Assembly: GCA_937966215.1 (NCBI GenBank)
Contig: CALCKK010000039.1
Coordinates: forward strand, 4,452-68,451
Length of the DNA stretch: 64,000 nt
Direction: 5' to 3'
Origin: an uncultured Collinsella sp.
GTDB taxonomy: Bacteria; Actinomycetota; Coriobacteriia; Coriobacteriales; Coriobacteriaceae
The notes beneath the pieces were generated by a model that was not told the origin of the DNA, made no database searches, and saw only the letters and a program-made list of their open reading frames with translations. Both the position numbers and the translations under genes were made by a program. Positions within the stretch are counted from its first letter, which is position 1. Each line of letters opens with the position of its first letter. Below, in pieces: positions 25,609-64,000 of the stretch.

Positions 25609-26338
25609 ATGGGTTACATGCTCGAGACGCGTGGGCTCACCAAGCGCTTCGGCCGCGGCGACCAGGCGCAGGACGCCGTGGCCGACGTGAGCCTTCATAT
25701 CCGCGAGGGCGAGGTGTACGGGCTGCTCGGTCCCAACGGCGCCGGCAAGTCGACAACGCTCAAGATGATCTGCGGGATGCTGCGGCCGACGGCCGGGGAG
25801 ATCCTCTTTGCCGGGCACGCCTGGCGCCGCGAGGACCTCTACGCAATCGGCAGCCTCATCGAGGAGGCGCCGCTCTACCCCAACCTCACCGCGCGCGAGA
25901 ACCTGCGCGTGCGCACCACGCTGCTGGGCCTTCCCGAGAGCCGCATAGATGAGGTGCTCGCCGCCGTGGACCTCGCGGACACCGGGAAGAAGCGCGCCGG
26001 GCGCTTCTCGATGGGGATGCGGCAGCGCCTGGGGCTCGCGTTGGCGCTGATCGCCCGGCCACGCCTGCTCGTGCTCGACGAGCCCACCAACGGCCTCGAC
26101 CCCATCGGCATCGAGGAACTGCGCGACCAGATCCGCGGCTTCGCGGCGGCGGGTACGACGGTGATCGTCTCGAGCCACATCCTTTCCGAGGTGCAGCAGA
26201 TGGCGGACACCATCGGCATCATCTGCGGGGGGGCGCCTCGCCTACGAGGATGCGCTTCGTCCCGGGCAGGACCTCGAGGAACTCTTCATGAGCTTCTGCC
26301 GGGAAGGGCGACGAGCGCGCGGGGAGGTGGCGGCATGA
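25609..26338 (+). pseudogene. ABC transporter ATP-binding protein (LanF/BcrA-like), frame broken at a G7 run
   Basis: Walker [10 protein letters not shown], signature FSMGMRQR and Walker B LLVLDEPTNGLD are present. After GGGGGGG (26227-26233) the expected C-terminus RLAYEDALRPGQDLEELFMSFC...* is in the +1 frame. As sequenced, the frame reads through into the permease. Confidence 0.8.
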
Positions 26339-27105
26339 CGGGCGAGAAAGGCGGCCTGCTTGCGGCCCTGCGCGCCGAGGCCCTGAAGTCGCGCCACGCG
26401 GCACCGGTTCGCCTGGCCGTGCTCATGGCGCTGCCGATGCCGCTGCTCGGCGCGATGCCCTACCGGGGCGTGCAGATCTTCAGCGCGTGGAACTACTGGT
26501 ACGCGCTCTTCCTGCCCGTGTCTCTCTCGCTCGTGGTGGCGTGCGTCGCGCGGGCGGACGCGCGCACGCGGATGCGGGGGCTTCTGGGCCTGGGCTTCCC
26601 GCTCGGGCGCGCCTGGTGGGCCAAGGCGCTCTGGTGCCTCGCGCTCTGCACGCTCTCGAACCTCGTGGTCTTCGGCATCTACCTCGCGGGATCGGCGTTC
26701 TCCTCGCAGGGTCTCACGGCCGCGGGCACGCTCACGATGCTCCTCTGCGCGCTCGCCAACACGGTGACCGCGGCGTGGATGATCCCCGCAGGGCTCTTCC
26801 TCACGGCGAGGCTCGGCATGCTCGCGGGCATCTTCTGCCCGCTCGCCGCGCAACTCGTAGGTGGGTTCGCCTGGTCGTTGGTGCCGCTGCCGCAGCTCTT
26901 TCCGCCGTCGGCGAACATGGTCATCCCCACGAGCTTCATCCCCGTGCTGCCGAGCGGCGAGCCGCTCGCGGCGGACATGGCGCTCGGCGAGGCGCTCGCG
27001 TCGGACGGCATGCTCACGCTGGCGGGCCTTGCGGTCTGCGCGCTCGCGTTCGCCGCGCTCACGGCGGCGGGCGCGGCCTGGTTCGCGCGCTCCGAGGAGA
27101 GGTGA
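26335..27105 (+). CDS. ABC-2 type permease (lantibiotic-immunity MutE/EpiE-like)
   Basis: ATG 26335 forms an ATGA overlap with the native ATPase stop. The product is about 256 aa with six hydrophobic helices. The family was assigned from architecture only. Confidence 0.65.
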   Translation: MTGEKGGLLAALRAEALKSRHAAPVRLAVLMALPMPLLGAMPYRGVQIFSAWNYWYALFLPVSLSLVVACVARADARTRMRGLLGLGFPLGRAWWAKALWCLALCTLSNLVVFGIYLAGSAFSSQGLTAAGTLTMLLCALANTVTAAWMIPAGLFLTARLGMLAGIFCPLAAQLVGGFAWSLVPLPQLFPPSANMVIPTSFIPVLPSGEPLAADMALGEALASDGMLTLAGLAVCALAFAALTAAGAAWFARSEER

Positions 27106-27920
27106 TGGCCATGACACGACTCTCCGACCCGATGCCGCGCATGACTCTCCCGCGGGCCCTGCTCTCCGAGGCCCTGCGCCTGGCGCGCTCCCCGCTCGCG
27201 GCGGTGCACCTCGCCTGCGGCCTGGCAGCCGGTCTTGCCTGCGGCGAGTACTTCTCCGTAACCCGATGGGACCCGGCGCTGGGCGCGGACGCCTACGCCC
27301 AGTTCCTCGGCGCCCTCATGCCGCTCATGTCCGCCATCGTCTGCGGGCTCGCCGTGGACGAGGAGCGCGCTGCCGGGCGCCTCGCCAACCTCACGGCGGT
27401 CCCCTCGCGCGGGCGCGCCGTCGCGGCGAAGTTGCTCGCCCTTGCGGCGCTCGGCGCGGGCGCGCTGGCCGTGGCGCTCGGCGTTTTCGGGGCCGTGCTC
27501 GCCGTCGCCGGGCGCCTGCCGCTCGGGCCCGCTCCGCTTGCGGCCGCCTGGGCGGGCATCGTGCTGGGCAGCCTGCCCCTCTACGCGCTGGGGCTCGGCG
27601 TGGCCCTGCGCCTCGGCCGCAACGCCACCATCGGCGCCGGCGCGGCGGGGATGCTCCTCGCGTTCTTCTCAGTGGGCGGACTTGCGCACGGTCTCATGAC
27701 CGGCGAGCTCACCGGTGCCCTGGCGACGCCCCTGAGCTGGGTGCCGCTCGCCTGGCCCGCGCGCCTGGGGTCGCTCGGGGTGGAGGCCTTCATCGACGCC
27801 GCACGCGCGGCGGGCCCTCTCCTCACGACTGCGCTCGCTGGCCTCGCGTTCACCCTGGCAGCCGCCGCCGTCCTTCTCGCCTGGTTCTGCCGCTTCGAGG
27901 ACGGGAGGGCAGATGCGTAG
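27105..27920 (+). CDS. ABC-2 type permease (MutG/EpiG-like)
   Basis: The ATG overlaps the upstream stop (TGATG). The product is 271 aa and multi-TM, the second permease of an F-E-G arrangement. Confidence 0.65.
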   Translation: MAMTRLSDPMPRMTLPRALLSEALRLARSPLAAVHLACGLAAGLACGEYFSVTRWDPALGADAYAQFLGALMPLMSAIVCGLAVDEERAAGRLANLTAVPSRGRAVAAKLLALAALGAGALAVALGVFGAVLAVAGRLPLGPAPLAAAWAGIVLGSLPLYALGLGVALRLGRNATIGAGAAGMLLAFFSVGGLAHGLMTGELTGALATPLSWVPLAWPARLGSLGVEAFIDAARAAGPLLTTALAGLAFTLAAAAVLLAWFCRFEDGRADA

Positions 27921-28314
27921 GAGGCCGCTCGCCGCCGTGCTCGCCCTCCTCTCCGCAGCGCTCGTCCTGGGCAGGAATGCCCTGCTCGACGCCGGCTGGG
28001 GTTCGGCGCTGCGCTCGATCGCCGACCGCGTGCTGCCCAACCCTGAGATCGCCATGTGGGCGCCCGCGCCCGAGCCCGGCAGCCACGCGAGCTCCTACGC
28101 CGACGCCACCGGGGCGGGGGCAAACTACGTCTACCTGGTGGACGCGGCGGACGACAGAGGCAATGTCCGAGAGCTCCAGCTCATCTTCTTCGGGCGGGAG
28201 TCGGACGGCGAGGGCTGGCTCGAGATCGAGGCGCGCGGCGGCTCGGGCGTGCGCTACCGCGCGTGCGACGCGGCCGAGACACCCGTGGCTGCGCGCAGGG
28301 CTCTGGACCGCTGA
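27913..28314 (+). CDS. Small secreted protein (possibly YxeA/DUF1093-like)
   Basis: Signal peptide MRRRPLAAVLALLSAALVLG and 133 aa. It lies between the ABC permeases and a two-component system. The family guess rests on size, context and memory only. Confidence 0.4.
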   Translation: MRRRPLAAVLALLSAALVLGRNALLDAGWGSALRSIADRVLPNPEIAMWAPAPEPGSHASSYADATGAGANYVYLVDAADDRGNVRELQLIFFGRESDGEGWLEIEARGGSGVRYRACDAAETPVAARRALDR

Positions 28315-28359
28315 GCGCGGCGTTAGTACAATTCCGACGAGAGTTTCAGGAGGTCGAAC

Positions 28360-29022
28360 ATGGCGAGGATACTGGCAGTGGATGATGAACGGGCGATCCT
28401 CGACGCGCTTGCGCGCGTCCTCGGCCGCGACGGCCATGAGGTCGTCAAGGCGGAGGACCCGACGGCGGTCCCGGGGATGGACCTCTCGCGCTTCGACCTC
28501 GTGCTCTGCGACGTCATGATGCCGGGGCTCGACGGCTTCGAGCTCGTGCGGCAGATCCGCCCGGACTTCGACGGCCCCATCGTCTTCCTGACCGCTCGCG
28601 TGGCCGAGGAGGATGCCGTGGCCGCCTACGGCCTGGCCGCCGACGACTACGTCCGCAAGCCCTTCGGGGCCGCGGAGCTGCGCGCCAAGGTCGCGGCCCA
28701 TCTACGCCGTGAGCGCCGGCCGCGCTCGCACGCCCTCTCCTTCGGGGAGGTGCGGATCGACCTCAGGGCGCGCGGCCTCGCCGTGGGCGGCGAGGCCGTG
28801 CCGCTCACGCCCACCGAGTACGCCATCTGCGAGTACCTCGCCCGCCACCCCGGGCAGGTCAAGAGCCGCGCGCAGATACGCGAGGCGGTGCTCGGCTGGG
28901 AGAGCGACGCCGACGACGCGGCCATATCCATGCAGGTCAGTCGCGCCCGGAGGAAACTCTCCGAGGCCGGCGCCGATCCGATCGCGACCGTCTGGGGGAT
29001 GGGGTACAAGTGGCAGCTCTGA
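28360..29022 (+). CDS. OmpR-family response regulator
   Basis: Receiver domain (ILAVDDE, LVLCDVMMPGLDG, KPF) and winged-helix output domain (LTPTEYAICEYL...VWGMGYKW). Confidence 0.92.
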   Translation: MARILAVDDERAILDALARVLGRDGHEVVKAEDPTAVPGMDLSRFDLVLCDVMMPGLDGFELVRQIRPDFDGPIVFLTARVAEEDAVAAYGLAADDYVRKPFGAAELRAKVAAHLRRERRPRSHALSFGEVRIDLRARGLAVGGEAVPLTPTEYAICEYLARHPGQVKSRAQIREAVLGWESDADDAAISMQVSRARRKLSEAGADPIATVWGMGYKWQL

Positions 29023-30446
29023 GGATCGGGGCGCGAGGTCGCGGGGGCATGCCGCTCTCCTTCGTCATCGCGCGCTACTTCGCCTGCGCGTTCGCGGCAG
29101 TCGCCACGGCGTGGCTCGCCTCGTTCATGATGCTCTCTGTGGCGATCAACGCGGGCTTCGTCTACGAGGCAAGCTGGGGGCCGGCCAATGCGCGCGAGGT
29201 CGCGGAGGGCCTGGCACGCGACGGCGTCTGCGGGCAGCAGGACGTGCCGACGGCGTACCGCTACCTCATCCTGAACAAGGACGGAAACGTGCTGATGACA
29301 GACCTCGAGAGCACGCGGCTCGAGGACGCGAAGGAAATGGCTCGTACGGCACTCGCCGCGGATCCGGGCACAGTGGAGATCGAGGGCGGGGGTTCGGGCG
29401 TTACCTACGCCGCGTTCCCGCTCAAAGGTGGCGGGGCCTGCGCGCTCGTCAGCGAGTATCTGCCGCAGTGGGTCTCGCGCGACCTCGCCGGCCTGCTTCC
29501 CAACCCGCAGAACCTCATGCTCGTCGGCGCCACGGCGGGAAGCGCACTTGCGCTTGCGCTCGTCGCGCGCCGCGCGAGCCGCGTGATCTCGCGCAAGATG
29601 GCGCCGCTCGCGGAGGCGGCGGGGCGCGTCGGCGCGGGGGAGCTCGACTTCGCGGTCGGCAGCACCAACGTGCGCGAGGTGAACGACGTCCTCGCCGCGA
29701 TGGACGCCATGCGGGCCTCCCTCGCCGAGTCGCTCGAGGCCCGCTGGGCCGCGGAGCGGGGGCAGCGCGAGCAGATGACGTCGCTCGCCCACGACCTCAA
29801 GACGCCGCTCACCGTGCTGCGCGCCAACGCCGACTTCGTAGCGGAGGAGCTGGAAGACGAGAAAGACGCCGACCTCGCGGCCGCCGCGCGCGACATAGCC
29901 GGCAGTGTCGAAAGGCTCGACGGCTACGTGCGCCTGCTCATCGAGGCCTCGCGCGGGTCCGGCGGGGCGGAGAGGGCCCCCATGCGGCCGGCCGAGCTTT
30001 GCGAGCAGGTCCTCGCCGAGGCCGCCCAGATCGCCCGGGCGCGAGGCGTGACGCTCGACGCGGCCACGGGCCCCGCTGTCGCGGGCGCGCCCGAGGCCGC
30101 GCTCGACCGAACCGCCCTGGCGCGAGCCGCCGCGAACCTCGTGGCCAACGCCGCCGAGCACGCACGCTCGCGCGTGGCTGTCTCCTGCGACGTCGCGGGC
30201 GGGCACCTCGTCATCGAGGTTGCCGACGACGGACCGGGCTTTTCTCCCGCCGCCCTCGAACGCGGCTGCGAGCGCCTCTTCACAGACGACTCCTCCCGCT
30301 CCTCGCGTGACGAAGGCCGCCACTACGGGCTCGGCCTCCACGTCGCCTCCGAGGCCGCGAGCGCCCACGGGGGATCCGTCTCGCTCGCCAACGGCCCCTC
30401 GGGCGGTGCGGTGGCCACCATCGCGGTCCCCCTGTGCGGGATCTGA
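29010..30446 (+). CDS. Sensor histidine kinase
   Basis: Two TM helices, a HAMP-like linker, H box SLAHDLKTPLT, N box NLVANAAEHA and G boxes DDGPGF / GLGLHV. Confidence 0.9.
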   Translation: MAALRIGARGRGGMPLSFVIARYFACAFAAVATAWLASFMMLSVAINAGFVYEASWGPANAREVAEGLARDGVCGQQDVPTAYRYLILNKDGNVLMTDLESTRLEDAKEMARTALAADPGTVEIEGGGSGVTYAAFPLKGGGACALVSEYLPQWVSRDLAGLLPNPQNLMLVGATAGSALALALVARRASRVISRKMAPLAEAAGRVGAGELDFAVGSTNVREVNDVLAAMDAMRASLAESLEARWAAERGQREQMTSLAHDLKTPLTVLRANADFVAEELEDEKDADLAAAARDIAGSVERLDGYVRLLIEASRGSGGAERAPMRPAELCEQVLAEAAQIARARGVTLDAATGPAVAGAPEAALDRTALARAAANLVANAAEHARSRVAVSCDVAGGHLVIEVADDGPGFSPAALERGCERLFTDDSSRSSRDEGRHYGLGLHVASEAASAHGGSVSLANGPSGGAVATIAVPLCGI

Positions 30447-49634: not shown

Positions 49635-50792
49635 CTAATTTCCGATTTCCAACCAGTTGCACAAAACATTTGCTCGCAGTCTCGTCTCGGCGCACTTCAT
49701 TGCCTCAGTTTTGACTTTATAGCGAATCCCTAAACGGTCGCAGACACTTCTGACTATGGTGTCTAGCTGCTTTGAATCGTTGAGCATATCGTGAGTCACC
49801 AGGAATACATCGAATCCCATGCTCTGCAACGCAGTCATGCGTTCCGCATCGTGGTCAAGTATTGCACCTGAACCATGAATGACTTCACCTTGGATTTCGA
49901 TAATTGCCCCTTTCATAAGAATCGGATTTACGATCACGATATCGCCGTAGCAGACCTTTTGACCTGCGATGCTTTGCGCCGATATGGAAAGAGGAGTTAA
50001 GTCGTTGGCATAAACGTTCGTGAAGCCAGCGCCGCCAAGACGCCGCGGACGGTTTAGAAGCAAGATTCCTGCAACCTCGAGCGGAGACGCAGCAATGCCG
50101 ATAACCTGCTGAGCGGCATCATAAAACTGCTTTCCCCACATTTGACTTTTGACCTTGTCGGCGAAACGATGCAGGTCGCTCAGCTCGATGAGCGGCTTTC
50201 TCATCCAGAGAGAAGTACCTTTGAGTTTCGTAACCTCTCTTCCATCTTCACGCTTGCTCGTTTGGCTATCATTATCTGGGTCCTTAACGGTTGCGCGGGC
50301 ATAAACTCGTTTCCAAGGAACCTCGTCTTCGCCTTCTCCAAGTTCGAACAGATCCTGCGTGCTGGAATTGCGATTCTCCTCTACCGCCATTTTTAACTGC
50401 ATTTCGGCAGCGGGAGCCGGCTCGAAAACAGAAAACCAACCGCAAAGTTCGTACATAGCCAGTACGAGATCTATTTGGGATACAAAGCGTGTCATAGTAA
50501 ATAACGTGTTAAGCGGATTGGTGACACAAAAGCCTAAATTAGTGTCGATTGTTGTGCCGGCATCCGATGCCCCTTCCCAGCGAATAGTAGAGCGCAATCC
50601 CGAGTGGTGATTACAACAACCTGGCGAAGTAACAGCGATAATTGGGGTCTTGAGGACTTCGGTTACAAAAGGGGCTTGGGATAGAGCTCGCCAGCCGTCT
50701 TCGGAGTTGGGCAGGCGCGGGTAGAGATTGCGCACCTGCGGTGGGCAGCGCCAATAGCGGAATGCAGTGTTTGCGCAGACGATATCGTCCAT
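49635..50792 (-). CDS. Hypothetical protein with C-terminal DUF559/Vsr-like endonuclease-fold domain
   Basis: The C-terminus GAIIEIQGEVIHGSGAILDHDAERMTALQSMGFDVFLVTHDML resembles the DUF559 pattern (hE.DG..H...D..R...L...G..V.R). The N-terminal 250 aa were not recognised. GC content is visibly lower than in the core genes. Confidence 0.45.
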   Translation of the reverse strand: MDDIVCANTAFRYWRCPPQVRNLYPRLPNSEDGWRALSQAPFVTEVLKTPIIAVTSPGCCNHHSGLRSTIRWEGASDAGTTIDTNLGFCVTNPLNTLFTMTRFVSQIDLVLAMYELCGWFSVFEPAPAAEMQLKMAVEENRNSSTQDLFELGEGEDEVPWKRVYARATVKDPDNDSQTSKREDGREVTKLKGTSLWMRKPLIELSDLHRFADKVKSQMWGKQFYDAAQQVIGIAASPLEVAGILLLNRPRRLGGAGFTNVYANDLTPLSISAQSIAGQKVCYGDIVIVNPILMKGAIIEIQGEVIHGSGAILDHDAERMTALQSMGFDVFLVTHDMLNDSKQLDTIVRSVCDRLGIRYKVKTEAMKCAETRLRANVLCNWLEIGN

Positions 50793-51380: not shown

Positions 51381-52184
51381 TTAAATCCACGAGGTCTCGG
51401 GACGGCAGATAAGTCGCGCGTTGTTGTAGGCCATGTCGAGCGTGAGGCAGGTGCGTGCGGCGTAGAAACCGTCCTCGCGCTGGATGGTCAGCGCCAGCAC
51501 GGGCTTGTCGCCGGTTAGGCACAGCGGCAAGAGCAGCTGGATCCGGCCGCCGTAGAACTGCGGCACGGCGAGTGTGTAGTTGGCGGCGGCGCGGCGGGCG
51601 GCCTCGACGACGGCACCCTCAAAGGCGCGGCGCAGCAGCAGCGAGTTACCCTCCCCCATCAGGCTGGCAGGAATGCGCGTCAGGTTCTCCTCGTCGCCCA
51701 GAATGTGATCGATGTTGGAGCGGATGGGAAGGCGGTGGTCAAAGACCAGCTCGGAAGGGTCCTCGGCAAAGCGTACGCGGCACGGCAGGTACTCAAACGA
51801 GACTAGCATGGGGTCGCTTTCCTTAAAGGAGCCCTTCAAAAACCAGTGCTGGTGCGCGTCGGGCTTGGTGTTGGGCTCAAACAGGCCGTAGGTGGTCTCG
51901 TAGCGGCGCGTGTGCAGGCCGGTGTTGAATAGGCAGCGGACGTCGTCGAACACCAGCGGCAAGTTGGACGGGGCGGTCTGGTCCACGTCGCGCTCGGTCA
52001 GGAACACCGCGCGGCTAAACGAAAACGACAGGTAGTTTTTGAGGATGCGGTTGCCGGGGCCCCAGTCCTCGGGGTCGGCGAGGTCGACCAGGCGGTCGTA
52101 GCAGGGCTCGGGGCAAAACGCGAAGTCGTACACATTGCTGCACAGGGTGCTGGGGATCTCCGTGTGGTGTCCAATCCATTTCAT
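51381..52184 (-). CDS. DUF3825-like protein
   Basis: ILKNYLSFSF, FNTGL, SNIDHILGDEENLTRIP, NYTLAVPQFYGGRIQLLLPL and LDMAYNNARLI match my recollection of DUF3825 conserved blocks. No database check was possible. Confidence 0.45.
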   Translation of the reverse strand: MKWIGHHTEIPSTLCSNVYDFAFCPEPCYDRLVDLADPEDWGPGNRILKNYLSFSFSRAVFLTERDVDQTAPSNLPLVFDDVRCLFNTGLHTRRYETTYGLFEPNTKPDAHQHWFLKGSFKESDPMLVSFEYLPCRVRFAEDPSELVFDHRLPIRSNIDHILGDEENLTRIPASLMGEGNSLLLRRAFEGAVVEAARRAAANYTLAVPQFYGGRIQLLLPLCLTGDKPVLALTIQREDGFYAARTCLTLDMAYNNARLICRPETSWI

Positions 52185-52520: not shown

Positions 52521-53306
52521 CTATTTACGAAAAGCAAGGAAAACCGCCGCTGCGATGCATATGATGCCTATCACGAGCGGAAGCCACGCCTTATCTTCTT
52601 TATCCTTAACAAGAAAAGCCTCAATTGCGGACGCAAGGACCAGGAATCCGCCGATAATCAGCAGATCAAGCGCAACGAAACGGACGGTCGTTATATCGGA
52701 AGAAACCCCTCCGGCATTAACGTTCACAAGCGTGAAGATCGCGGCAAAAATGGCGAAGAGAGCCAGAACATTGCCATAGATACGAGACTCGATGTTGGCG
52801 ACTTCGTTCTTTTTATCCTCGACCTTTTTGAGCTCTCCGGCATAGACGTCGGAATAGTCGGCAAGCCCATTAAAATTGAGCTCATCGGAAAAGGCTCCAT
52901 GGTAAGGATGAGCAACCGTGCCTTCGACGCGCTGGAATGCGACTTGCGCGATACCCTTAGATTTATCAAGGGCAATCGTGTTGCCGCTTACGTTTGTAAC
53001 ACGGTAGAACAGCCGTGTTCCATGACCGGGGAAATATAGCGGCGCATCCAAAGAAAGCCCCTGGCGAATGCGCGAATTGCGTAAAAGAACGCTAGCGGTC
53101 AAATCGTTGGGCAGCGCGATACATTCAACGCAAGAGACAAAAGTCGAGTCTCCAGGGCCAAGTTCGACCTCGGATTGCTTGCTTTCGTTAACGTAGAACC
53201 CGTCAGTGCGCAAGTCATACGTAACCTGTCCGATGTTCGAAGCATCGGCATTGAGCAGCACCTTGCTGTCGATGAGCTCCTGAATCTTAGTATCGCTCAA
53301 GTACAT
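52521..53306 (-). CDS. dCTP deaminase/dUTPase-fold domain fused to a C-terminal multi-TM region
   Basis: The N-terminal 170 aa or so align by eye with Dcd (MYLSDTKIQELI..., ELGPGDSTFVSCVECIALPNDL, LLRNSRIRQGL, FPGHGTRLFYRVTN, IAQVAF). A coiled segment and 3 hydrophobic helices follow (VLALFAIFAAIFTLV, FVALDLLIIGGFLVLASAI, LPLVIGIICIAAAVFLAF). The ATG at 53306 follows aaggaag. Confidence 0.7.
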   Translation of the reverse strand: MYLSDTKIQELIDSKVLLNADASNIGQVTYDLRTDGFYVNESKQSEVELGPGDSTFVSCVECIALPNDLTASVLLRNSRIRQGLSLDAPLYFPGHGTRLFYRVTNVSGNTIALDKSKGIAQVAFQRVEGTVAHPYHGAFSDELNFNGLADYSDVYAGELKKVEDKKNEVANIESRIYGNVLALFAIFAAIFTLVNVNAGGVSSDITTVRFVALDLLIIGGFLVLASAIEAFLVKDKEDKAWLPLVIGIICIAAAVFLAFRK

Positions 53307-53430
53307 ATGAATCACTTCCTTAGGACAACGAGTATAGCACTGAGGTATTGCGCTGGCGGCTGTCCCCAAAGGGGACATAGGGGAAGAAGTTTGAACACAT
53401 ATTTAAGGCTCGGACACGTGGTTGCGATTC

Positions 53431-54735: not shown

Positions 54736-55875
54736 TCAACAACGACATGCGGCAGCTAGAAGCATTGTACCAAGCAGGAAAAGCGTCACGGAAGCTGCGA
54801 CCCAGTTGTTGTCGCCGGTCTTGGGGAGTAACGCAGTTGTCGCGGTGGCGGTTGCGGTCTTGGGCTTATAGGACGTGGACACCGTGGTCTTGGTTACTGT
54901 CGTTGTTGTCTTGGTTGTCGCGGCCGCGGGCTTCAGCGAGGGATTTGCCGTGGGTACCGTGGTGGGCTCTCCGGTAGCGGGGTTGGCATTGGCGGGAGAC
55001 TTGTCCGTGCTATCGCCCAGCACGTCGTGTCCATCGGTCTCCCCCGCCGGAGGCGTGGCCACATCGGGCTCAACCACCACATGCGGTGCCACCGCACCGG
55101 AGGCGTCCACCACGCCGCTAGCACCAAAAGCCCCACCAGCAGGCGTCACAAACCGCGCAGATACAAGTGACCCGCCCGTGCTCGCAAGGCCGCCGTCGGC
55201 ACCGGTCGCATCGAGCCACGAGGCGTCGACGGAAAGCCGACAGCCGGCCGCACCGTCGCCAAGGCCCGCATCCTGCAGACACACGCCGTAGGCGCGCACG
55301 CCCGCTCCGGACCCGGCGCCCGCGGCGACGAAGCGCCCGCCGCCGCGCACGGCCATATCGCCTGCGATCACGCCGGCGACCGCCTCGTCCGTAATATCGG
55401 CCCCATCCGCCCGCGCATCGACGGTGCATCCGTCCACCACGAGCGCCTGCGAGACGTGGATCCCGCACTGTGAGCCCGTCGCCGTCAGGGTCCCGGTACC
55501 GCGAAGCGTCAGGTTGCCCCACACCTCCATGCCGCACAGCGTGATGTCCGCATCGGGCGCATGCGACTCCGTCACGGAGTTTTGCCCGGCAAGCGTCAGC
55601 ACCAGGTCGCCTTCGGCGCCGATGGCCTCCCCCGCGTAGCCGTTAAGCTCCAGGTGGTCGGCATCGGTCCAGGCCCAGCCGGGGCCCGACGCGCCCGGCT
55701 CGTAGTACGTCTCGCCCGCGATGATGAGGCTCTCCGCGCCCGCGGCATAAGAAGGCCCGCCCAGCAAAACGCATAGGCAGGCCATGGCAGCGATCGCGAT
55801 GTGATGACGGCTGGTGTGGGACTCGGCAGCAAACATACCCGCTCCGATCTTCGCAGGAGCCAATAGAATGTGCAC
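54736..55875 (-). CDS. LPXTG cell-wall-anchored surface protein
   Basis: Signal peptide (IAIAAMACLCVLLGGPSYAAGA), a Gly/Ala/Asp-rich beta-like region, a Thr/Lys/Pro stalk and a C-terminal LPKTG motif with a hydrophobic helix and tail. The start is possibly Met14. Confidence 0.8.
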   Translation of the reverse strand: MHILLAPAKIGAGMFAAESHTSRHHIAIAAMACLCVLLGGPSYAAGAESLIIAGETYYEPGASGPGWAWTDADHLELNGYAGEAIGAEGDLVLTLAGQNSVTESHAPDADITLCGMEVWGNLTLRGTGTLTATGSQCGIHVSQALVVDGCTVDARADGADITDEAVAGVIAGDMAVRGGGRFVAAGAGSGAGVRAYGVCLQDAGLGDGAAGCRLSVDASWLDATGADGGLASTGGSLVSARFVTPAGGAFGASGVVDASGAVAPHVVVEPDVATPPAGETDGHDVLGDSTDKSPANANPATGEPTTVPTANPSLKPAAATTKTTTTVTKTTVSTSYKPKTATATATTALLPKTGDNNWVAASVTLFLLGTMLLAAACRC

Positions 55876-56077
55876 CAGAAAATGCCCTGGTAGCAGCAGT
55901 TATTAGTTTAGCGAGATCAGACGATGAGCAAAGAATAAAACCGTGATCAACTCCCAAAATTAGGTGTAAATCGTTTTGCCAGTCGGCGAAAGGAAGAATC
56001 GCCTCGAGTCGATTGGCGTTCATAAATTCCTAAGTCTGTAACAAAGGACCCTTACAGGTTGAAATCGTAAGAATAGC

Positions 56078-57871
56078 CTACTTTGACAATTGCTTAAAAT
56101 CCTGAGCTGATGATTCCGCAGCCTCAACCATTGTTAACCAATCGTCTAATTTTGGAGGACGAACGGTCCATAAAGTATCTCGGCCCTTCAGCACATCTTC
56201 ATTTGGTGGAACCATTGCACATATAGCTTTGTTTCCGTACTGATCATCTGGGCTTAAGACTAGCTTACGTTCAGAATCTTTTATTTGGTCTGCTGAGCAT
56301 TCTGAAGAACCAATTACTAGAGTAGTCTGTGCAAAACCGCAGAATGCCTCTTTGCTTCCAAGCTTAACAGCTATAGGCTTAATCCAGCGCGCTAAAGAGG
56401 GGTATTCAAAGTTTGGGACTTCATCCCCTTCTAGATTAAACCCATGTGATTCCCAACTATATACAATCGTTTCGCCATCGAGCAGTCTTGCTGCATCTTT
56501 AATATTTGCGACTTCTCCTTTAGTGATTTTAAAATAATCAGGGAAAGGCATTTCGCCGTCCGCAGCCCTGTTAATAGTTTCTAACGCAACCGCAAGACCG
56601 TATATGGCATTTACTTCGGCAACCACATCATCCCTGAGGCCGAGATAAAAATAGAGAGCACTCGTGCCATCGATTCGAAGCTCCACTTTTTCATCTTCGG
56701 CTTCGCTTAAGAATCGATAAGTTCTTACTACATCTCGAGAACGCTTATTGAGTAATTTGTTAAATGAAAACTCATAGTTAATCGTTCCGCCGGACTGGCT
56801 GCCGATCCATTTAAAGCTCAATCGAAAGGTTTCCGTCGCGTCATGGGCAGAAAAGAAAGCTCCCTTCGTTCCATGAGTGGCCTTATCAACTATTAGATGT
56901 AGTTCACCACAGCCTTCCCAGAACAACGAAGCCGACCTTATGCAAGTTGATGTGGGCAGATCAAGGGTCTTAATGATTCCCTTTCGAATACCATCGCAGG
57001 AACGTCCAACGGGCAATTGGTAGGCCTGATCAATCACTTCCGCCGGCAACGAAGTGAAGGGCATACCATACTCGATAAAATTTTTGGCCTGTTCCTTCTC
57101 ATCGTCAGTCCCTGCAGTGATTTTCAGTGAAAACCTTAATGGATGCAGCATTGAAGCAATTGGCGTCTTTTCAATTACGTCGATTGCGATTCGACCTGCT
57201 CCCGGGGTTACTAGAATTTGGGACATAACAACGCCAGGGGCACATGCGCAAAAATCATCGCGTTTGTCGTATTCTGAGAGCACGTGAACTGAATATGCAT
57301 AGTAAGGGTCCAGTTTATCAAGATGGGAACATAGATCGCGCAGCCTATTTTCGAGAATGGCTGGATCGCTGCAGTCTGGAAGATTGGCCATGGAGAGCAG
57401 TTTCGCAGCATACTCAGAGACCTCTTCTTTTCCATTTGAAAAGTAATAATCAATTACTTCTGGGTGTTTGGACGCCCAGCCATCAACTCTTGAAAGGCCA
57501 TCCCAGACGAATTTTGTACCAGAAGTTTCAACCAGCTCCTTAGCCCATCTTAGATTCTCATTTGTGGGATCTAATGGCATAACAAGATGCCAGCTATTTA
57601 TTTTTACATGCAAATCGACTGTGGTTGCCGATAATTCCTGCCACGAATTTTCAATCTGAGCTTTCTGGCCGTTTTTTAGATTTTCAGCAAATTTCTTAAT
57701 TTGATATATGTCGACCGTTTCAGCATCAAGGTAAACGATAAGGTCAATTCCTCCATCGCCCCTAGAAGGTCGAATTTTAATGGCGTCTCGCTCTTCAAGA
57801 GAAATAAACGTCGCAAGAACTGACTCGATATCCTCACCTGAATATCGAGTCCAAGGGATACGTCCAGTCAT
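56078..57871 (-). CDS. Large protein with N-terminal PD-(D/E)xK (Mrr-like) nuclease motif and an unrecognised C-terminal 450 aa
   Basis: The N-terminus WTRYSGEDIESVLATFISL...RPSRGDGGIDLIVY...VDIYQIKKF matches the Mrr-cat pattern (GDGGID ... Q-x-K). No P-loop was found. It lies 41 nt downstream of the RT gene on the same strand in AT-rich DNA. Confidence 0.6.
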   Translation of the reverse strand: MTGRIPWTRYSGEDIESVLATFISLEERDAIKIRPSRGDGGIDLIVYLDAETVDIYQIKKFAENLKNGQKAQIENSWQELSATTVDLHVKINSWHLVMPLDPTNENLRWAKELVETSGTKFVWDGLSRVDGWASKHPEVIDYYFSNGKEEVSEYAAKLLSMANLPDCSDPAILENRLRDLCSHLDKLDPYYAYSVHVLSEYDKRDDFCACAPGVVMSQILVTPGAGRIAIDVIEKTPIASMLHPLRFSLKITAGTDDEKEQAKNFIEYGMPFTSLPAEVIDQAYQLPVGRSCDGIRKGIIKTLDLPTSTCIRSASLFWEGCGELHLIVDKATHGTKGAFFSAHDATETFRLSFKWIGSQSGGTINYEFSFNKLLNKRSRDVVRTYRFLSEAEDEKVELRIDGTSALYFYLGLRDDVVAEVNAIYGLAVALETINRAADGEMPFPDYFKITKGEVANIKDAARLLDGETIVYSWESHGFNLEGDEVPNFEYPSLARWIKPIAVKLGSKEAFCGFAQTTLVIGSSECSADQIKDSERKLVLSPDDQYGNKAICAMVPPNEDVLKGRDTLWTVRPPKLDDWLTMVEAAESSAQDFKQLSK

Positions 57872-57911
57872 CGCTGCACCTCAATAGAAGCTAAATAAAA
57901 AAATCCAATCA

Positions 57912-59459
57912 CTAATTTAAATATTCGGGTTTAATGAACTTGATTCCCCTCTTTTTAATGGCCCTCCACTCATCAGACGGTAACCACTCTTTTGATCGAA
58001 TATGATAGAGAAAAAGCCACATCTCTTCAAATTCACGCCCTTCTATTGGGAATTCCTTAGCATGCTTTGTAAGACGATCAAGCAAATATCCATCGCCAAA
58101 ATGCTTGGCGTAAAGATAGACGAATAAGTATAAAAGACAGTCATTAGCCCTTTTGATATCTTCAAAATCGGGCATATCAACCTTAAAATCGAACTTAATT
58201 GCGTAGTAAAGGCCGTAGCAAACCGAAAGGTGATCACCGTGATTAAGACAATCAGAGATAATAACCTTTGAGAGACACTCAATATAATCTTTGTCCATAC
58301 TCAAAGGCTCAATTATTGCTTTCTCGAATGACGGCAGCAAATAAGGAAATACGATTGCAAGGTGCATAGCATAGTCCCGAAAATAGGCTTTTGCCGAAGG
58401 CTTTAGTGAGCGCGATGCGAGCATTTTGAACGCGTATAGCAGTATTGAGGCATTATTCTGGTAAGAAGGAAGAAGACTGGTCGCGTATTCCAAAAAAGAT
58501 GACACATCTTTGTAATCAAGCGGGTCCGATTTATTAGGTTCATTGCGCCTTAATGAATTTACCCAGCCATTAGAAAGCGCTATGGGTAATTCTAGTATTT
58601 CAGTTTTCTTCTGATTCAGTGTTAGACGAAACTTGGACAGCTCTTCCTGCAACGAGATGATGAACTGCTCGGCCTCGTATCGCGATGCGACATAACAATT
58701 GTAGTCATCGATATTTCGAATAAATCTATAGCCTTTGTTAAATAAACTAGCATCGATAACTGTGAGAATTAATTCTGAGACAACATTGGAAGCGTGTGGA
58801 CCGATAAGTAATCCGTGGGTTTCGCCGTCGCACGCCTTTTGAAGTAGTCCGTCAATTTCGTTCGCCCAACCGCCCCGACGGGAACTTCTATTTTGCTTTG
58901 CGTTATCCCTTCCCATAATCGCCCAAGGCAAAGAATGCGTGTATATACTCGGAAAACAAGTGGAGATGTCGCATTTCACGAGGTATTTTTTACCAATAAG
59001 AATAGTTGGTTCAGGGTTAGGATCAGTCATCCAGTTTGAATAGTTCATTTGGAATATTGCTTGCGAATCGGGAATCACACGAGGATGAATCCTGCTAACT
59101 GCATAAGGCTGCGGTAATGTGTATTTTTGAACGTGACGGACTATATCGCCCCAATTGTCGGCTAAACCGCGGACGAGTCGCTCGTAGGTGAAGGGGGTTG
59201 GTATGCCGAATTTTCGATATTGTCCATTGCACCGAATGTAATTAAATCTAATCCACTCTGAGCGTGAATCGTTGCTTGCCATTTTGCGATTATTGCAATA
59301 CGTAACAAATTGTTCTGCCGAAAAAATCGGCGGTAGTTTGTCGGCAAACCATCCGGCAAGCATTAGTCCGTTATAAACAGCATCTTCGGATAACTCTTGC
59401 CAATATGCCCAGTAAGGCTTGGAAGGAGCAAAGAGCTTGTCACATAATTGAGATTCCAT
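57912..59459 (-). CDS. Reverse transcriptase of the UG/Abi (defence-associated) type, helical C-terminal half
   Basis: The RT palm motifs occur in order: LVKCDISTCFPSIYTHSLPWA (A), GLLIGPHASNVVSELIL (B), FIRNIDDYNCYV (C, with DD) and LTLNQKKTEIL (D/E). The C-terminal 200 aa or so are helical and contain an R-x4-H match (FRDYAMH). There is no maturase or endonuclease domain. Confidence 0.8.
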   Translation of the reverse strand: MESQLCDKLFAPSKPYWAYWQELSEDAVYNGLMLAGWFADKLPPIFSAEQFVTYCNNRKMASNDSRSEWIRFNYIRCNGQYRKFGIPTPFTYERLVRGLADNWGDIVRHVQKYTLPQPYAVSRIHPRVIPDSQAIFQMNYSNWMTDPNPEPTILIGKKYLVKCDISTCFPSIYTHSLPWAIMGRDNAKQNRSSRRGGWANEIDGLLQKACDGETHGLLIGPHASNVVSELILTVIDASLFNKGYRFIRNIDDYNCYVASRYEAEQFIISLQEELSKFRLTLNQKKTEILELPIALSNGWVNSLRRNEPNKSDPLDYKDVSSFLEYATSLLPSYQNNASILLYAFKMLASRSLKPSAKAYFRDYAMHLAIVFPYLLPSFEKAIIEPLSMDKDYIECLSKVIISDCLNHGDHLSVCYGLYYAIKFDFKVDMPDFEDIKRANDCLLYLFVYLYAKHFGDGYLLDRLTKHAKEFPIEGREFEEMWLFLYHIRSKEWLPSDEWRAIKKRGIKFIKPEYLN

Positions 59460-59979
59460 TGCCGACCTTAAGATAGGCTACTTAATGAACAATAGTTTAA
59501 TCAAATAGCTGCATAGATATTTATGAAATACTTCAATTTAGAAGTGTGAATCACATTGAAATTGCTGTAATTAATTTAAAGGATTTCTATGTGCCTGCAG
59601 TCAACCTATTAATACCGATCCGATTGCTTATACTAAATGCTGGCTCGGGTCTACGTAACTAATACGAGCCAGTTATATTGCTCCTATTATATTGAGGTCC
59701 GAGAGAAGCGGGGCCATCGCACTCCCCAGATGTCGCCAAACAAGTCCTTCGCGTACGCCCTGTCTCTGCTACGAGCTTGTCCGTTTAAGTAGGCTTTATC
59801 GTGCTCCCGTGACGCATATCCTTAATGTAATTACTTCTATCCTAAAAGTCCTCCAACGGCAGGCGAAGGCCATCATATGAGCCACTAGAAACGGCCAAAC
59901 TGCGTCACGAGATAGCTTGCTTGGACAATCGGTAGATACGGAGTGTTGCCACTAATCGACATGTAATCTATCCATTCTC

Positions 59980-60639
59980 TCAGCGCCATATAGGACCTGC
60001 TAGTTGCATTTGGCGCTGAATTGCACCTCTCTTGTTTAGCTGGCATAGAGTTTTGTATGATGCGGCAAGAGTGTTTTCTCTTTCAAAGAGATCTTGCCGT
60101 TGATCGGGCTCATCTAACCTTTCAGAAGCCTGTTCAAGCGTCCATTGATATTCCCTTGCATTCTTGAGCATCTTATTAAATAGAATCTGATACTGATACA
60201 TTGAAAACAAAAGGGATTGATAATCTTCTATGAATTCGGCAATTGCCTTTCCACTCTTTCCCTTGAAGCAAAATCTCGCCTCCATGGCGAGCGATCTCAT
60301 TTCATCAAGCTTTAAATGCAATTTAAGTTGAAGGTCGGCATCTAACACCTTATTAATTGAGGCTGAGATTGATTGCAGGTACGTGGTGTTAGTCAGCCAT
60401 ACAAATAGTAGGTCGATTGCCATTTGCGGTTCGTCGTCATGTTCCAAGTTCTTCGCGTTTTTTGCGTAAACGCTCATGAGATTATCGACGGTTATCCATA
60501 TATTTAAACGTCGATTGAATAGAGACTGTTTATTGCTGAGACGAGCCTGGTAACAAGAAATGAGCAACGCGATGATTGCCACAATCGCTGAGATGTACTC
60601 AGGTAAATTTGTTAGGTTCATTGTCTCCTCCGCAGCCAA
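59980..60639 (-). CDS. Single-pass membrane protein with helical cytoplasmic domain, unknown function
   Basis: TM helix YISAIVAIIALLISCY near the N-terminus, with the remaining 180 aa predicted helical. It lies in AT-rich DNA between the SMODS operon and the RT module. Confidence 0.5.
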   Translation of the reverse strand: MAAEETMNLTNLPEYISAIVAIIALLISCYQARLSNKQSLFNRRLNIWITVDNLMSVYAKNAKNLEHDDEPQMAIDLLFVWLTNTTYLQSISASINKVLDADLQLKLHLKLDEMRSLAMEARFCFKGKSGKAIAEFIEDYQSLLFSMYQYQILFNKMLKNAREYQWTLEQASERLDEPDQRQDLFERENTLAASYKTLCQLNKRGAIQRQMQLAGPIWR

Positions 60640-60814
60640 AAATCAATTGGCAATACTACAATTATCGATCTGCATTCAGGATTCTCTGACAATAGGAATT
60701 ACGTTACTGAGGTCATTGATCGTAGTAGAATATCCGATTGATTTGAAAGTCGTTCCACATCGTAGCTTATGCTGTTAGTTGATTGGTTATATGGGCTGTT
60801 TAGGGGATAATTCC

Positions 60815-61366
60815 CTAATTGATATCCTTTCCTTTAAACGACGTGGATAGCATCATCAGAAGAACGTCGTTGACCATTCGTCCCCTGAAGTTGCAAAGCG
60901 CGGTAAATGAAATCATACTAAGCAGTTTCATGCCCTGCTCATCGATCCTTCCTTTTTCAGGAGGGCAGTAGACGATTAATCCGCACTGGGGCTTTTTACC
61001 TCGGACAACAGCATTGAATTCTTCGTTGCTTAGATATTCATGAACAATAATCATTAAAAGCGCTGATTGAGCTTCATCAAGGTGTTTGTTGGTGACATGC
61101 TGAATATTTCTTGTTTTAATAAGGCCGGAATTGACCAAATCTTTTCGAATGTCATTAAAATCATCAAGTCCTGCGATAATAGCGATTTTCTTTGCGAATA
61201 ACGCTAGCCCGAATCTGATCAGGGCTTGAGTAATGCCAGCAAAAGATCCCGCGGCAACTACCAACAGTGCGATGAACCCAAATACTGAGCAGATAGCAGT
61301 TATGCAGTCACGGGCGCTATAAAAGATTTGTAGGAGCTGTAGTATTATTTCCAACAATTTATCCAT
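60815..61366 (-). CDS. 2TM protein with small alpha/beta C-terminal domain (candidate effector of the SMODS enzyme)
   Basis: Two hydrophobic helices (ITAICSVFGFIALLVVAAGSFAGI and LIRFGLALFAKKIAIIAGL) precede a domain of about 110 aa with alternating strand/helix character. The start lies 10 nt after the SMODS gene stop. Confidence 0.55.
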   Translation of the reverse strand: MDKLLEIILQLLQIFYSARDCITAICSVFGFIALLVVAAGSFAGITQALIRFGLALFAKKIAIIAGLDDFNDIRKDLVNSGLIKTRNIQHVTNKHLDEAQSALLMIIVHEYLSNEEFNAVVRGKKPQCGLIVYCPPEKGRIDEQGMKLLSMISFTALCNFRGRMVNDVLLMMLSTSFKGKDIN

Positions 61367-61375
61367 ATCAATTAT

Positions 61376-62698
61376 CTACTCCACATTAATGAAAAACGGA
61401 CGGGTCCATCGTACGCAATAGCCTTTACGCACAACAAAGCACTGCACGATATGTTTTCCGGTATAGGCTGTTTCTTCTCGTCTTGAAGTTTTCCCTTCGT
61501 TGGGAGCTTCAAAGCCCCCACGCTGACAGCATCGCATAGCCTCTTCACCGGTATTGGTGATCTGCCATCTTACACGCCCGTCTTTAATTGGGCTGTATGT
61601 GACTTTATATATCACTGAGGACCCTTTCGGAACCGCCGGCCCATCATTTGGAAGATTGATTTGTTTGCCCGAAGGAAGAGTGGCAGTTGCAGTGATGGTT
61701 GCATTTGGTTTTTGAGATTGCAAGGGATACTTCAGCTTTTGTCTATGGGTAACGGACAACGCGCGTTCCTGTGCAATTCGCCTCGTTCCAGCTGCGTAAG
61801 ATCTCGATTCATTCCCTGCTGGGAAATTAATGCCAAGAATGGTTCTCCAAATATCGTTGCCAGTGCCTTTTTCTGCAAGAAGATCAAGTTGTTCGATCAG
61901 TCTATTTGAAAACTCAAGGAAGTCGTTGTGTTTGTACTTTTCCGCTAGGTTATTTTCGCAAAATGCGGGATCTTCGATAAATGGAGTGTTGCCAGAACTT
62001 AAATCTTCTGAGTACGCTTCTGACAAATTGGCCATTGTTTGCATTACACGCTCTTCAATCGTGAGGTGCGGTTCTGGTAAATTATCAGCAATCATTTTCT
62101 CAAGAGTAATTCCCTTTGGATATTTGACATTCGATGGACAGTTTTCTCTTCGCCACCATTTAAAAATTTTCACCAAAGGCTTATATGCATTTTCATACCC
62201 TTGATTAACTTCTGTTGTCCAAGAAATATGTTTCTTCGGATCAGTTCGCTTCCAAGTGCCTTCCTTAGATGATCCAATATTAAGAAAACCGTTTTCATCT
62301 CTGACCAAGGGCACAACATCAAGATGGAAACTTGCCATATCTATACCGACAGAATGATTTTGAATAGTCGTTTTTTGGTAACAGCTGCGTAGTTTGAGGG
62401 CCTTTTCAAGCTCATTCAATACAAAAGTCGGAGAATCGTTTGTTGAACGACTAGTTTCGATGACAACGTCAATATCGCAGCAATCCGAATTCTTTTTTGG
62501 ACGAATGAACGTTTGCTTAGCGTAAGATCCTGACAAATAGCTGTGAACATAAATATGTTTATAGCTCTCACAAGTTTTCAAGTGATTCCTAAGATTCTGG
62601 TGAAGTCTGCTTGCTTCATCGATAGTAGATTTACTTGGGTTGATATCTTTTAGAAAAGACTCGAAGTCGGTACTGTTTGCCACAATTCTCCAATTCAA
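61376..62698 (-). CDS. SMODS-family nucleotidyltransferase fused to an AGS-C sensor domain
   Basis: Pol-beta NTase signature LSGSYAKQTFIRPKKNSDCCDIDVVI (GS ... DxD) plus a third acidic residue in HLDVVPL. The C-terminus VRWQITNTGEEAMRCCQRGGFEAP...ETAYTGKHIVQCFVVRKGYCV resembles the AGS-C pattern (assigned from memory). Confidence 0.75.
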   Translation of the reverse strand: MNWRIVANSTDFESFLKDINPSKSTIDEASRLHQNLRNHLKTCESYKHIYVHSYLSGSYAKQTFIRPKKNSDCCDIDVVIETSRSTNDSPTFVLNELEKALKLRSCYQKTTIQNHSVGIDMASFHLDVVPLVRDENGFLNIGSSKEGTWKRTDPKKHISWTTEVNQGYENAYKPLVKIFKWWRRENCPSNVKYPKGITLEKMIADNLPEPHLTIEERVMQTMANLSEAYSEDLSSGNTPFIEDPAFCENNLAEKYKHNDFLEFSNRLIEQLDLLAEKGTGNDIWRTILGINFPAGNESRSYAAGTRRIAQERALSVTHRQKLKYPLQSQKPNATITATATLPSGKQINLPNDGPAVPKGSSVIYKVTYSPIKDGRVRWQITNTGEEAMRCCQRGGFEAPNEGKTSRREETAYTGKHIVQCFVVRKGYCVRWTRPFFINVE

Positions 62699-62819
62699 AC
62701 GTATGTTCTATTATAAGTAATAATATTCGAGTAGATTAATTTATGTGACATCAATTTAAATACTGATTCGAATCTTAGATTGATAGTTTCTGCCAGGGTG
62801 TTTTTGGTTTTCCATTTAT

Positions 62820-62865
62820 GAAATCGACCCCTGAGGATCTGTTTTACTCCTCAAGGGTCGATTTC
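62820..62865. other. Long hairpin in AT-rich spacer at the island edge
   Basis: gaaatcgacccctgagga-(10 nt)-tcctcaagggtcgatttc is an 18-bp stem with one mismatch. Confidence 0.6.
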
Positions 62866-63310
62866 AATTTATATATCAGTTTAGAAAACAGTTGATGATT
62901 CAGAGACCGGAAGGCCCCCGAAGATCGTGTCGAAAATGTGAGCCTGATTCTAAATCAAATTATGTAGTCATCATGACCCTAGCATAGAGTCTTTTATTTG
63001 GTTTGCTTAACCAAGTACCAAATAGCGAAGACACATTCAAGTGCTTACGGAGGGTTACGTTGGTTCAAAAGTTGGCTTAGTCAATTTTTGAACCAACGTA
63101 AGTCAAAACTCATGGAGAGAGTTTACGTGGAAGTAGCTAAATTTCGGCTTCCGTTATTCGCAAGTTGCTGCTTGCGTTGTAGTTAAATCAATGAAAGATA
63201 AGCATGCAATTGAGATGCTGACCGCTATCATCCAGACGAATGATAGTTACCACTCCCCCATGCTTCAGATTACGGCATGAATAATGCGCCGAGTGTATAT
63301 CTAAGCGCGG

Positions 63311-64000
63311 CTATCTCGCTACGCCTTCACCACAGGTGTCGCTCCCGAGCTTGATAGGCGACAGTTCGATGTGGTCTTTACTTGCGTCGAATTGACCCAG
63401 CAGGCCAGCTATGGCGGCGGATACACTATCATCGATGTAAAGACCGCATTTGCCTCCACGCTCAGCTGCTCGCGCGAACTCGACGAGCTCGTTTCGAATT
63501 CCCTCGCCGTCAAGCTGGAAGAAATACCGCTTGTTTTGAGAAGGATCCTCTTTGCGTACCTCGAAGTAGTCTGTTTTCCACCAGGGAGCGGGTACGTAAA
63601 TGTAGCCATCCGTGCCGGAAACCACAAGCGACCCCTCAGATTTAGCCGCCTTGCCGAAAACCGCCTCGCCGTAGCCATCCTCGAATGCCAGTCGGATCTC
63701 ACCAAACGCGTCAAAGCCAGCGTAACCTTCAAGGTCGGCCCTTACAAAATCGGCTGATTGATAATTAGTTCCGAGTAGCTGCAAGATGGGCAGCAACGCT
63801 GCTGGACCCCAGGCTTTGGAGCTCGACCACTTGCCCTCAACGCTCGAGATGTCCTCACTGCCAAGATCAACAAGGCTGGTGCATACAGCGCGCACCGACA
63901 GAACTCGTCCAATGTGACCACTCTTGGCGAGCAGAAGCAGTCGATGGTAGGCCGTTGAATACGCCGTCTTGATCGCGTCGGCCAAAACGAGGCCCTTTGA
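63311..64000 (-). CDS. Gfo/Idh/MocA-family oxidoreductase, C-terminal part (5' end outside window)
   Basis: The frame stays open to the window edge upstream of the tracked TTG. AYSTAYHRLLLLAKSGHIGRVLSVRAV is typical of the junction into the Gfo/Idh/MocA C-terminal domain. Confidence 0.6.
   Translation of the reverse strand, partial: SKGLVLADAIKTAYSTAYHRLLLLAKSGHIGRVLSVRAVCTSLVDLGSEDISSVEGKWSSSKAWGPAALLPILQLLGTNYQSADFVRADLEGYAGFDAFGEIRLAFEDGYGEAVFGKAAKSEGSLVVSGTDGYIYVPAPWWKTDYFEVRKEDPSQNKRYFFQLDGEGIRNELVEFARAAERGGKCGLYIDDSVSAAIAGLLGQFDASKDHIELSPIKLGSDTCGEGVAR

Follow-up and report, generated by a model that had tools for sequence, protein, structure and literature searches.

The window analysed here is a 64,000-nucleotide (nt) stretch of contig CALCKK010000039.1 (positions 4,452 to 68,451) from an uncultured Collinsella sp., within which a reverse transcriptase (RT) gene is followed on the minus strand by a gene encoding a 597-amino-acid (aa) protein with a nuclease-like N-terminus. 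The initial annotation of this DNA proposed the two as a new two-gene RT defence variant. We assign the RT, by full-length profile matches, to the characterised single-gene system DRT4/UG15, and found the pair at one Collinsella chromosomal site alone, where the RT was repeatedly swapped for Gabija. The parts of the locus on which the argument depends are as follows.

57912..59459, minus strand: RT of 515 aa, assigned to DRT4/UG15 (class 1 UG/Abi).
56078..57871, minus strand: gene for the 597-aa protein.
57872..57911, minus strand: intergenic spacer of 40 nt with the 597-aa gene's own ribosome-binding site (RBS), GAGGTG (read from the sequence).
57467..57871, minus strand: predicted Mrr/LmuA-like PD-(D/E)xK nuclease domain, residues ~1-135 of the 597-aa protein (conservation and fold matches).
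56078..57466, minus strand: helical linker and beta-rich C-terminal region, residues ~136-597 of the 597-aa protein (AlphaFold AF2 model).
57912..58004, minus strand: last ~90 nt of the RT open reading frame (ORF), a marker of the cassette-swap breakpoint (junction alignment, blastn synteny and tblastn).
59460..59979, minus strand: the 520 bp lying 5' of the RT (synteny comparison).

Both ORFs, and all of the motifs quoted for them in the initial annotation, were found in the sequence: the RT contains CDISTCFPSIYTHS (motif A, including SIYTHS), RNIDDY (motif C) and FRDYAMH, and the 597-aa protein contains RPSRGDGGID...YQIKKF. They are real genes rather than chance ORFs, since the RT gave a full-length match to the Drt4 hidden Markov model (HMM) and the 597-aa protein has relatives in 895 clusters and is under purifying selection. 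The RT ends in TAG, the ATG of the 597-aa gene lies 41 nt past this stop beyond the 40 nt spacer, and the GAGGTG RBS stands 6 nt ahead of the ATG. The two genes sit inside an island of ~42-44% guanine plus cytosine (GC) at about 56000-63000, surrounded by a genome of ~58-63% GC; the host is Collinsella, with related loci that are 99% identical.

The RT matched the PADLOC Drt4 model PDLC02178 with E=3.9e-186 and 617.9 bits, its residues 14-513 falling on positions 3-504 of the 506 in the profile, and it matched the Mestre-type UG15 Drt4 model PDLC03752 at full length (E=4.2e-153, 508.9 bits); matches to other PADLOC families were far weaker (Drt6, 3e-91; AbiK, 1e-41; Drt8, 2.3e-29). One score counts against the assignment: the NCBIfam Drt4 model NF041749 gave 360.8 bits, below its equivalog cutoff of 450. 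As this was nonetheless the best NCBIfam match by a wide margin (the next, Drt3b, reached 115.5 bits), the RT is best described by its profile scores as a divergent DRT4 subclade and not as another family. The closest solved structures were the UG15/DRT4 hexamers (PDB chains, E~1e-49, RT residues 41-445 aligned with 29-439). These matches place the RT as a full-length DRT4/UG15 class 1 UG/Abi enzyme and so as a predicted member of a known anti-phage system, in agreement with the UG/Abi defence RT that had been recognised from its motifs. The exclusion of group II intron and retron RTs likewise held, the group_II_RT_mat model scoring 42.8 bits against a cutoff of 300 and the retron model 14.8 bits against a cutoff of 235. 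No Rfam family was found near the RT (55000-64000) apart from a chance match to mir-548; that match lies at 63053-63103 on both strands (34 and 28 bits; gathering score 90), and the element is probably a palindromic AT-rich repeat.

DRT4/UG15 was published as a single-gene system (PMC12783706, PMC9226505), and Mestre et al. place UG15 among the stand-alone class 1 RTs (PMC9226505). The E. coli DRT4 (PDB 9vdo, 9ltm, 21ou) is a dimer of trimers in which an alphaRep domain replaces the thumb and the catalytic motif is YIDD; it primes on Tyr125, makes random single-stranded DNA (ssDNA) without a template, is effective alone in E. coli, and its ssDNA becomes toxic once a phage ssDNA-binding protein shields it from ExoI (PMC12783706). 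The window RT resembles this enzyme in its full-length HMM match and in its order of fingers and palm followed by alphaRep; it differs in having NIDD for YIDD, 515 aa against 540 aa and a gut actinobacterium as its host, and in its sub-cutoff NCBIfam score. AbiK and Abi-P2 (PDB 7r06, 7r08) are also protein-primed, untemplated class 1 enzymes in which helical repeats follow the RT core, and were matched in the PDB search at E~1e-16, but AbiK is far more distant than DRT4 (PADLOC 1e-41 against 3.9e-186).

When aligned with the solved DRT4, Y140 of the window RT fell on the priming Tyr125 and NIDD fell on YIDD. Among 56 RT homologs (39-82% identity) Y140, D164 of motif A and the catalytic D251 and D252 were invariant (56/56), as were S171, Y173 and H175 of SIYTHS. 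The residue ahead of IDD (N249) was N in 41/56 and H in 11/56, so that NIDD (N249-I250-D251-D252), which had been taken as unusual, reads as the motif C consensus of the subfamily. The aligned residues 41-445 span the alphaRep helices of DRT4 (residues 29-439), and by this alignment the thumb is replaced by an alphaRep domain at the C-terminus. Two proposals had been made for this half of the protein, and the class 1 alpha-repeat domain is the one that stood; an AbiA-like HEPN domain built on FRDYAMH was rejected, as R361 is R in only 3/56 homologs, the segment aligned with VYDYLLN inside the alphaRep domain of solved DRT4, and no HEPN domain was matched in Pfam at E<=0.1. In loci carrying an 80% RT allele, blastn homology began at 59471, 12 nt 5' of the RT ATG; the 520-bp region 5' of the RT is therefore not part of the conserved RT unit.

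The 597-aa protein belongs to a large and mostly actinobacterial family, for which exhaustive searching returned 895 clusters at 50% identity with E<=1e-3, and 556 at <=1e-10; members are typically 560-610 aa and are named 'hypothetical protein' or 'restriction endonuclease' in their sources, and no library used here has a family name for the protein. The window protein itself had no match in Pfam, NCBIfam or PHROG, and neither it nor the family profile matched any sequence in the PDB. PADLOC gave weak matches of the N-terminal ~100 residues to LmuA and Avs2 (the latter over the N-terminal ~80 residues, E=0.027). In an alignment of 76 family sequences (~25% identity) W7, G38, G41, D43, Q57, K59, S76, P99, G269 and P444 were invariant and E16 and D39 were at least 90% conserved, the conserved polar residues being concentrated in the N-terminal domain. 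GDGGID...QxK is the signature of Mrr-type PD-(D/E)xK nucleases, and E16, D39, D43, Q57 and K59 are the candidate active site. One LmuA model was matched by 59/76 members (best 1.6e-10) and Pfam Mrr_cat (PF04471) was matched weakly by 9/76 (best 1.7e-4), the window protein itself lying below threshold; a Streptomyces member annotated as a restriction endonuclease also gave a weak Mrr_cat match.

For structural comparison an alignment-based AF2 model was used (predicted local distance difference test score, pLDDT, 90.2; predicted template-modelling score, pTM, 0.80) in place of a single-sequence model (pLDDT 31.7). Its Foldseek matches were local and lay in the N-terminal domain: Avs4 (8dgf; probability 1.00, 170 columns) was the top structural match, and Nt.BspD6I, EcoT38I, Cap4, EcoO109I and phage 'restriction endonucleases' (127-129 columns, root-mean-square deviation 3.6-3.8) were also found; the top matches were nucleases with probability 1.00 but E~1e-2. 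The Mrr-like N-terminus that had been noticed from the sequence is thus supported by family conservation, by LmuA and weak Mrr_cat matches and by the local fold matches of the model, all of which favour a Mrr/LmuA-like PD-(D/E)xK nuclease domain. The signature is shared with the LmuA N-terminus, Avs2/Avs4 and Mrr_cat, but the resemblance to each of these systems is partial. LmuA models were matched by the N-terminal ~100 residues alone, and no LmuB/SMC gene is among the neighbours (RT and surface protein), unlike Lamassu; unlike Avs, the protein lacks a STAND NTPase (no NTPase domain in Pfam); a SAVED domain is likewise absent. It differs from the Mrr-type nucleases in that its nuclease domain is N-terminal and is followed by over 400 aa without a known fold.

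In the AF2 model this remainder consists of a helical linker and then a beta-rich part from ~190 to 597, for which no Pfam, NCBIfam, PADLOC or PHROG match was obtained. Its sole conserved residues in the 76 sequences were G269, P444, G334 and L430, and for this reason it is without a catalytic-type signature; most likely it would sense a signal or restrain the nuclease.

Genomes and metagenomes were scanned for loci of the 597-aa family with pattern-based scans (the 76-sequence alignment was too diverse for finding loci and a 14-sequence subset was used; a word-indexed profile search was dominated by near-identical Collinsella proteins and returned one distant member). This gave 43 Collinsella-type loci and 62 distant loci, from a sampling that was not exhaustive and in which many metagenome contigs were short or poorly covered. 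In Collinsella the 597-aa gene was always just upstream of the same high-GC surface-protein gene, and on its own upstream side, at the 38 loci that could be typed, stood the RT in 19/38 and a complete Gabija system in 19/38 (GajA 1e-182, GajB 5e-154, and a 187-aa ORF). In the Gabija-type loci the final ~90 nt of the RT gene persisted in decayed form, interrupted by stops, and the spacer and RBS of the RT-type loci came next; blastn synteny blocks in these loci began at window 58001-58004, and tblastn recovered RT remnants of 25-29 aa. Between gajB and the 597-aa gene the remnant was seen in L002-L004, L009, L010, L014, L015, L017, L031, L037 and L046, at about 130-45 nt upstream of the 597-aa start. 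The retention of the RT 3' remnant, the spacer and the RBS in the Gabija-type loci shows that in this Collinsella lineage the two genes were neighbours ancestrally and that the RT was displaced by Gabija.

The 597-aa ORF was intact in 13/19 Gabija-type loci and in 17/19 RT-type loci, and the ratio of nonsynonymous to synonymous substitution rates (dN/dS, Nei-Gojobori) was 0.21 for Gabija-linked and 0.25 for RT-linked alleles, values that include some divergence older than the cassette swaps; the gene is under purifying selection. The active-site residues were kept in 29 Collinsella alleles, two single substitutions excepted. As a separate observation, a genome that matches the window at this locus with 99% identity carries, at L001:6001-7791, a 597-aa gene with a premature stop at codon 57 beside an intact RT.

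The alleles of the 597-aa gene interleaved across the two locus types. The allele in L002 (Gabija) was 97.8% identical to that in L016 (RT), that in L010 (Gabija) was 97.5% identical to that in L011 (RT), and L011 combined a 99.4% RT allele with an 83% 597-aa allele; this interleaving and the L011 mismatch indicate repeated recombination between the RT and the 597-aa gene. The synteny breaks at 59471 and 58004 frame the RT as a separate cassette. A Collinsella 81% RT allele that came up in an independent RT search is followed downstream by the 597-aa gene, which is what the same locus should show.

These data bear directly on whether the window holds a genuine two-gene DRT4 variant, in which protein-linked ssDNA made by the RT would activate, or be processed by, the 597-aa effector nuclease. 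The genes are on the same strand with a 40-nt gap, no terminator and low GC in both, their adjacency is ancestral across diverged Collinsella RT alleles, and an RT plus PD-(D/E)xK effector architecture has a precedent in DRT8/UG7, a UG/Abi RT with a separate PD-(D/E)xK effector gene (PMC9226505), which on paper is the architecture that had been proposed here. The window RT, however, matches Drt8 weakly and over the RT core solely (residues 127-290, E=2.3e-29), the 597-aa protein has no match to DRT-associated PADLOC models, and the pair, unlike DRT8, does not co-occur beyond one locus. Moreover, DRT4 needs no partner in E. coli, Gabija stands in place of the RT at half of the loci with the nuclease intact and under purifying selection, the allele phylogenies of the RT and 597-aa gene are discordant, and the two genes were not found together in any of the 21 distant nuclease lineages or the 8 RT lineages. 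We therefore regard a two-gene variant as improbable. A facultative coupling confined to Collinsella, in which the 597-aa C-terminal region senses the protein-linked ssDNA or the hexamer of DRT4 and adds a DNA-degrading arm to abortive infection, would explain the survival of the nuclease after RT loss if the nuclease also acts alone, and is in our estimate very unlikely.

Outside Collinsella, the 62 distant loci fell into 21 lineages at 60% identity, of which 13/21 have at least 2 kb of downstream sequence. An RT was present at 0/62 of these loci (21 lineages, 518 kb; tblastn at E<=1e-3 and an HMM from 56 DRT4 homologs) and on 0/4 viral/prophage contigs carrying a 597-family gene; 597-family genes were not found in GenBank phage records. 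Family genes were also observed on nine actinobacterial plasmids and at prophage edges. No RT was annotated near the homolog in three actinobacterial plasmid loci, L121, L122 and L123 (NZ_CP049749.1, NZ_CP066363.1, NZ_KR152226.1), where the homolog lay mostly between opposite-strand genes, near relaxase, type IV secretion system (T4SS) or helicase/methyltransferase genes. The converse comparison agreed: the 597-family gene was absent from 8 RT-relative lineages outside Collinsella (40-63% identity; tblastn and family HMM), and these eight had no common neighbour. One DRT4 relative, from Blautia, was considered as a possible recurrence of the pair because a small Mrr_cat gene lies two genes downstream of it, and was rejected: the Mrr_cat protein shows no relationship to the 597-aa family (hhalign probability 0.7%, no HMM match). 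A further DRT4 relative (41% identity) was observed at L118:906-9218 within a type I restriction-modification (R-M) operon, in the order HsdM, HsdS, RT, 152-aa ORF and HsdR.

No neighbour of the 597-family gene recurred across the distant lineages; those that could be named were type IIG, type III and type ISP R-M components, GmrSD, Gabija, STAND-Mrr, STAND-TPR and a C5 methylase. Distant family genes (~30% identity) at L082:8001-13857 and L059:1849-5467 were followed by same-strand GajA/GajB-like genes, so that the family stands beside Gabija in three lineages, with Gabija upstream of it in Collinsella and downstream in L082 and L059. Such company might suggest a promiscuous accessory nuclease that joins any adjoining defence module, be it DRT4 (as here), Gabija or the R-M components met elsewhere. 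The varying order relative to Gabija argues against this, as do the self-sufficiency of Gabija and of DRT4, the three annotated plasmid loci without a nearby defence partner and with mostly opposite-strand flanks, and the want of a recurrent neighbour in most lineages; clustering in defence islands accounts for the adjacency, and a promiscuous accessory role seems very doubtful.

The same surroundings are pertinent to a third explanation, in which the 597-aa protein would be an ordinary endonuclease of the restriction type (type II or IV-like), or else a nuclease that serves the maintenance of a mobile element, and its C-terminal region would simply bind DNA. Some members are annotated 'restriction endonuclease', the best Foldseek matches include the type II enzymes EcoT38I, EcoO109I and Nt.BspD6I, a C5 methylase lies directly upstream in one lineage (L080/L081), and on actinobacterial plasmids the family genes are found close to relaxase and T4SS genes. 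An adjacent methyltransferase is missing in most lineages, however, and the C-terminal region matches no known DNA-binding fold. We judge this explanation possible though unlikely, and it overlaps the reading of separate modules given next, since a type IV-like enzyme would itself count as a defence nuclease acting alone.

On balance the window probably contains two adjacent but separable single-gene modules in a low-GC Collinsella defence island, with CBASS further upstream. The two genes do not form a module under this reading because the RT was swapped for Gabija while the 597-aa gene stayed intact and under purifying selection, and because there was no co-occurrence in the distant lineages of either the 597-aa family or the RT relatives; the best reading of their pairing is that it is coincidental or at most facultative. 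The RT behaves like DRT4 as a stand-alone, exchangeable cassette, in view of its synteny breaks at both ends and of the eight relative lineages with no common neighbour. By homology with E. coli DRT4 it would form a hexamer, prime on its own Tyr140 and make random ssDNA without a template; shielded from the host exonuclease by a phage ssDNA-binding protein, this DNA would build up and prove lethal to the cell. The N-terminal nuclease of the 597-aa protein (D39, D43, Q57, K59) is most likely a DNA-cutting effector, and the protein may act alone in the manner of a single-protein restriction or abortive-infection nuclease. Although their adjacency is ancestral in the Collinsella lineage, neither gene would need it.

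Several points weigh against this reading in addition to the NCBIfam score. The RT and 597-aa gene are co-oriented with a gap of 40 nt, and no terminator-like site was found between them in a terminator scan, although the promoter and terminator scans of the window gave results at chance level and were uninformative; on the gap, the orientation and the lack of such a site the two genes are probably co-transcribed. They are alike in their foreign GC content (41.9% and 44.0%) and their adjacency spans RT alleles of 77-100% identity, from which they may have arrived together. Disrupted 597-aa ORFs were commoner without the RT (6/19 vs 2/19); this difference was not significant and is confounded by low-coverage contigs at several loci, and a dependence of the 597-aa gene on the RT was on these grounds rejected as an interpretation of the disruption rates. 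Just 10/21 of the distant lineages have at least 2 kb of upstream sequence. Foldseek found no PDB or BFVD fold match for the linker or the beta-rich region (~190-597), and the part in defence that we ascribe to the 597-aa family is a putative one.

Two further features lie upstream of the RT.

59980..60639, minus strand: predicted membrane protein of 219 aa (tblastn co-occurrence and synteny).
60815..62698, minus strand: type I CBASS (cyclic oligonucleotide-based anti-phage signalling system) pair (Pfam and PADLOC).

The 219-aa protein has an N-terminal transmembrane helix and had no family match in Pfam, PADLOC, NCBIfam or PHROG; it accompanied the 94-100% RT allele and not the 80% allele. 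The CBASS pair consists of a cyclase with SMODS and AGS_C domains at 61376..62698 (Pfam SMODS 1.7e-35, AGS_C 4.1e-20; PADLOC Cyclase 3.6e-79) and a 1TM effector at 60815..61366 (PADLOC Effector 1.1e-32). Synteny ended near 60689 and the pair was missing from every related Collinsella locus, and it is for this reason regarded as a separate recent insert. On the other side of the 597-aa gene, a 285-aa protein at 52521-53378 (minus strand) combines a dCTP-deaminase-like domain (PF22769, TIGR02274 partial) with C-terminal transmembrane segments and might serve in defence by depleting nucleotides, with an unusual anchor in the membrane. Many Collinsella genomes also keep two genes downstream of the locus, one for a DUF3825 protein (51381..52184, minus strand, E=2.5e-55) and one for a protein of 385 aa that matched REase_MTES_1575 weakly (49635..50792, minus strand). 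Elsewhere in the window GC rises to 71-76% at 26000-30000, well over the ~58-63% of the flanks.

The proposed new RT defence architecture is thus not borne out: the RT is a DRT4, and the mechanism and structure of DRT4 appeared in print in 2025. The 597-aa family may reasonably be put forward as a candidate for a new nuclease of defence or restriction that works as a single gene, on account of its invariant Mrr-type site, its confidently modelled C-terminal region with no structural match, and its occurrence on plasmids, at the edges of prophages and within defence islands. The Collinsella locus represents turnover of a DRT4 cassette to Gabija that left a datable RT remnant, and it illustrates the weakness of adjacency in a single genome as evidence for a functional module.

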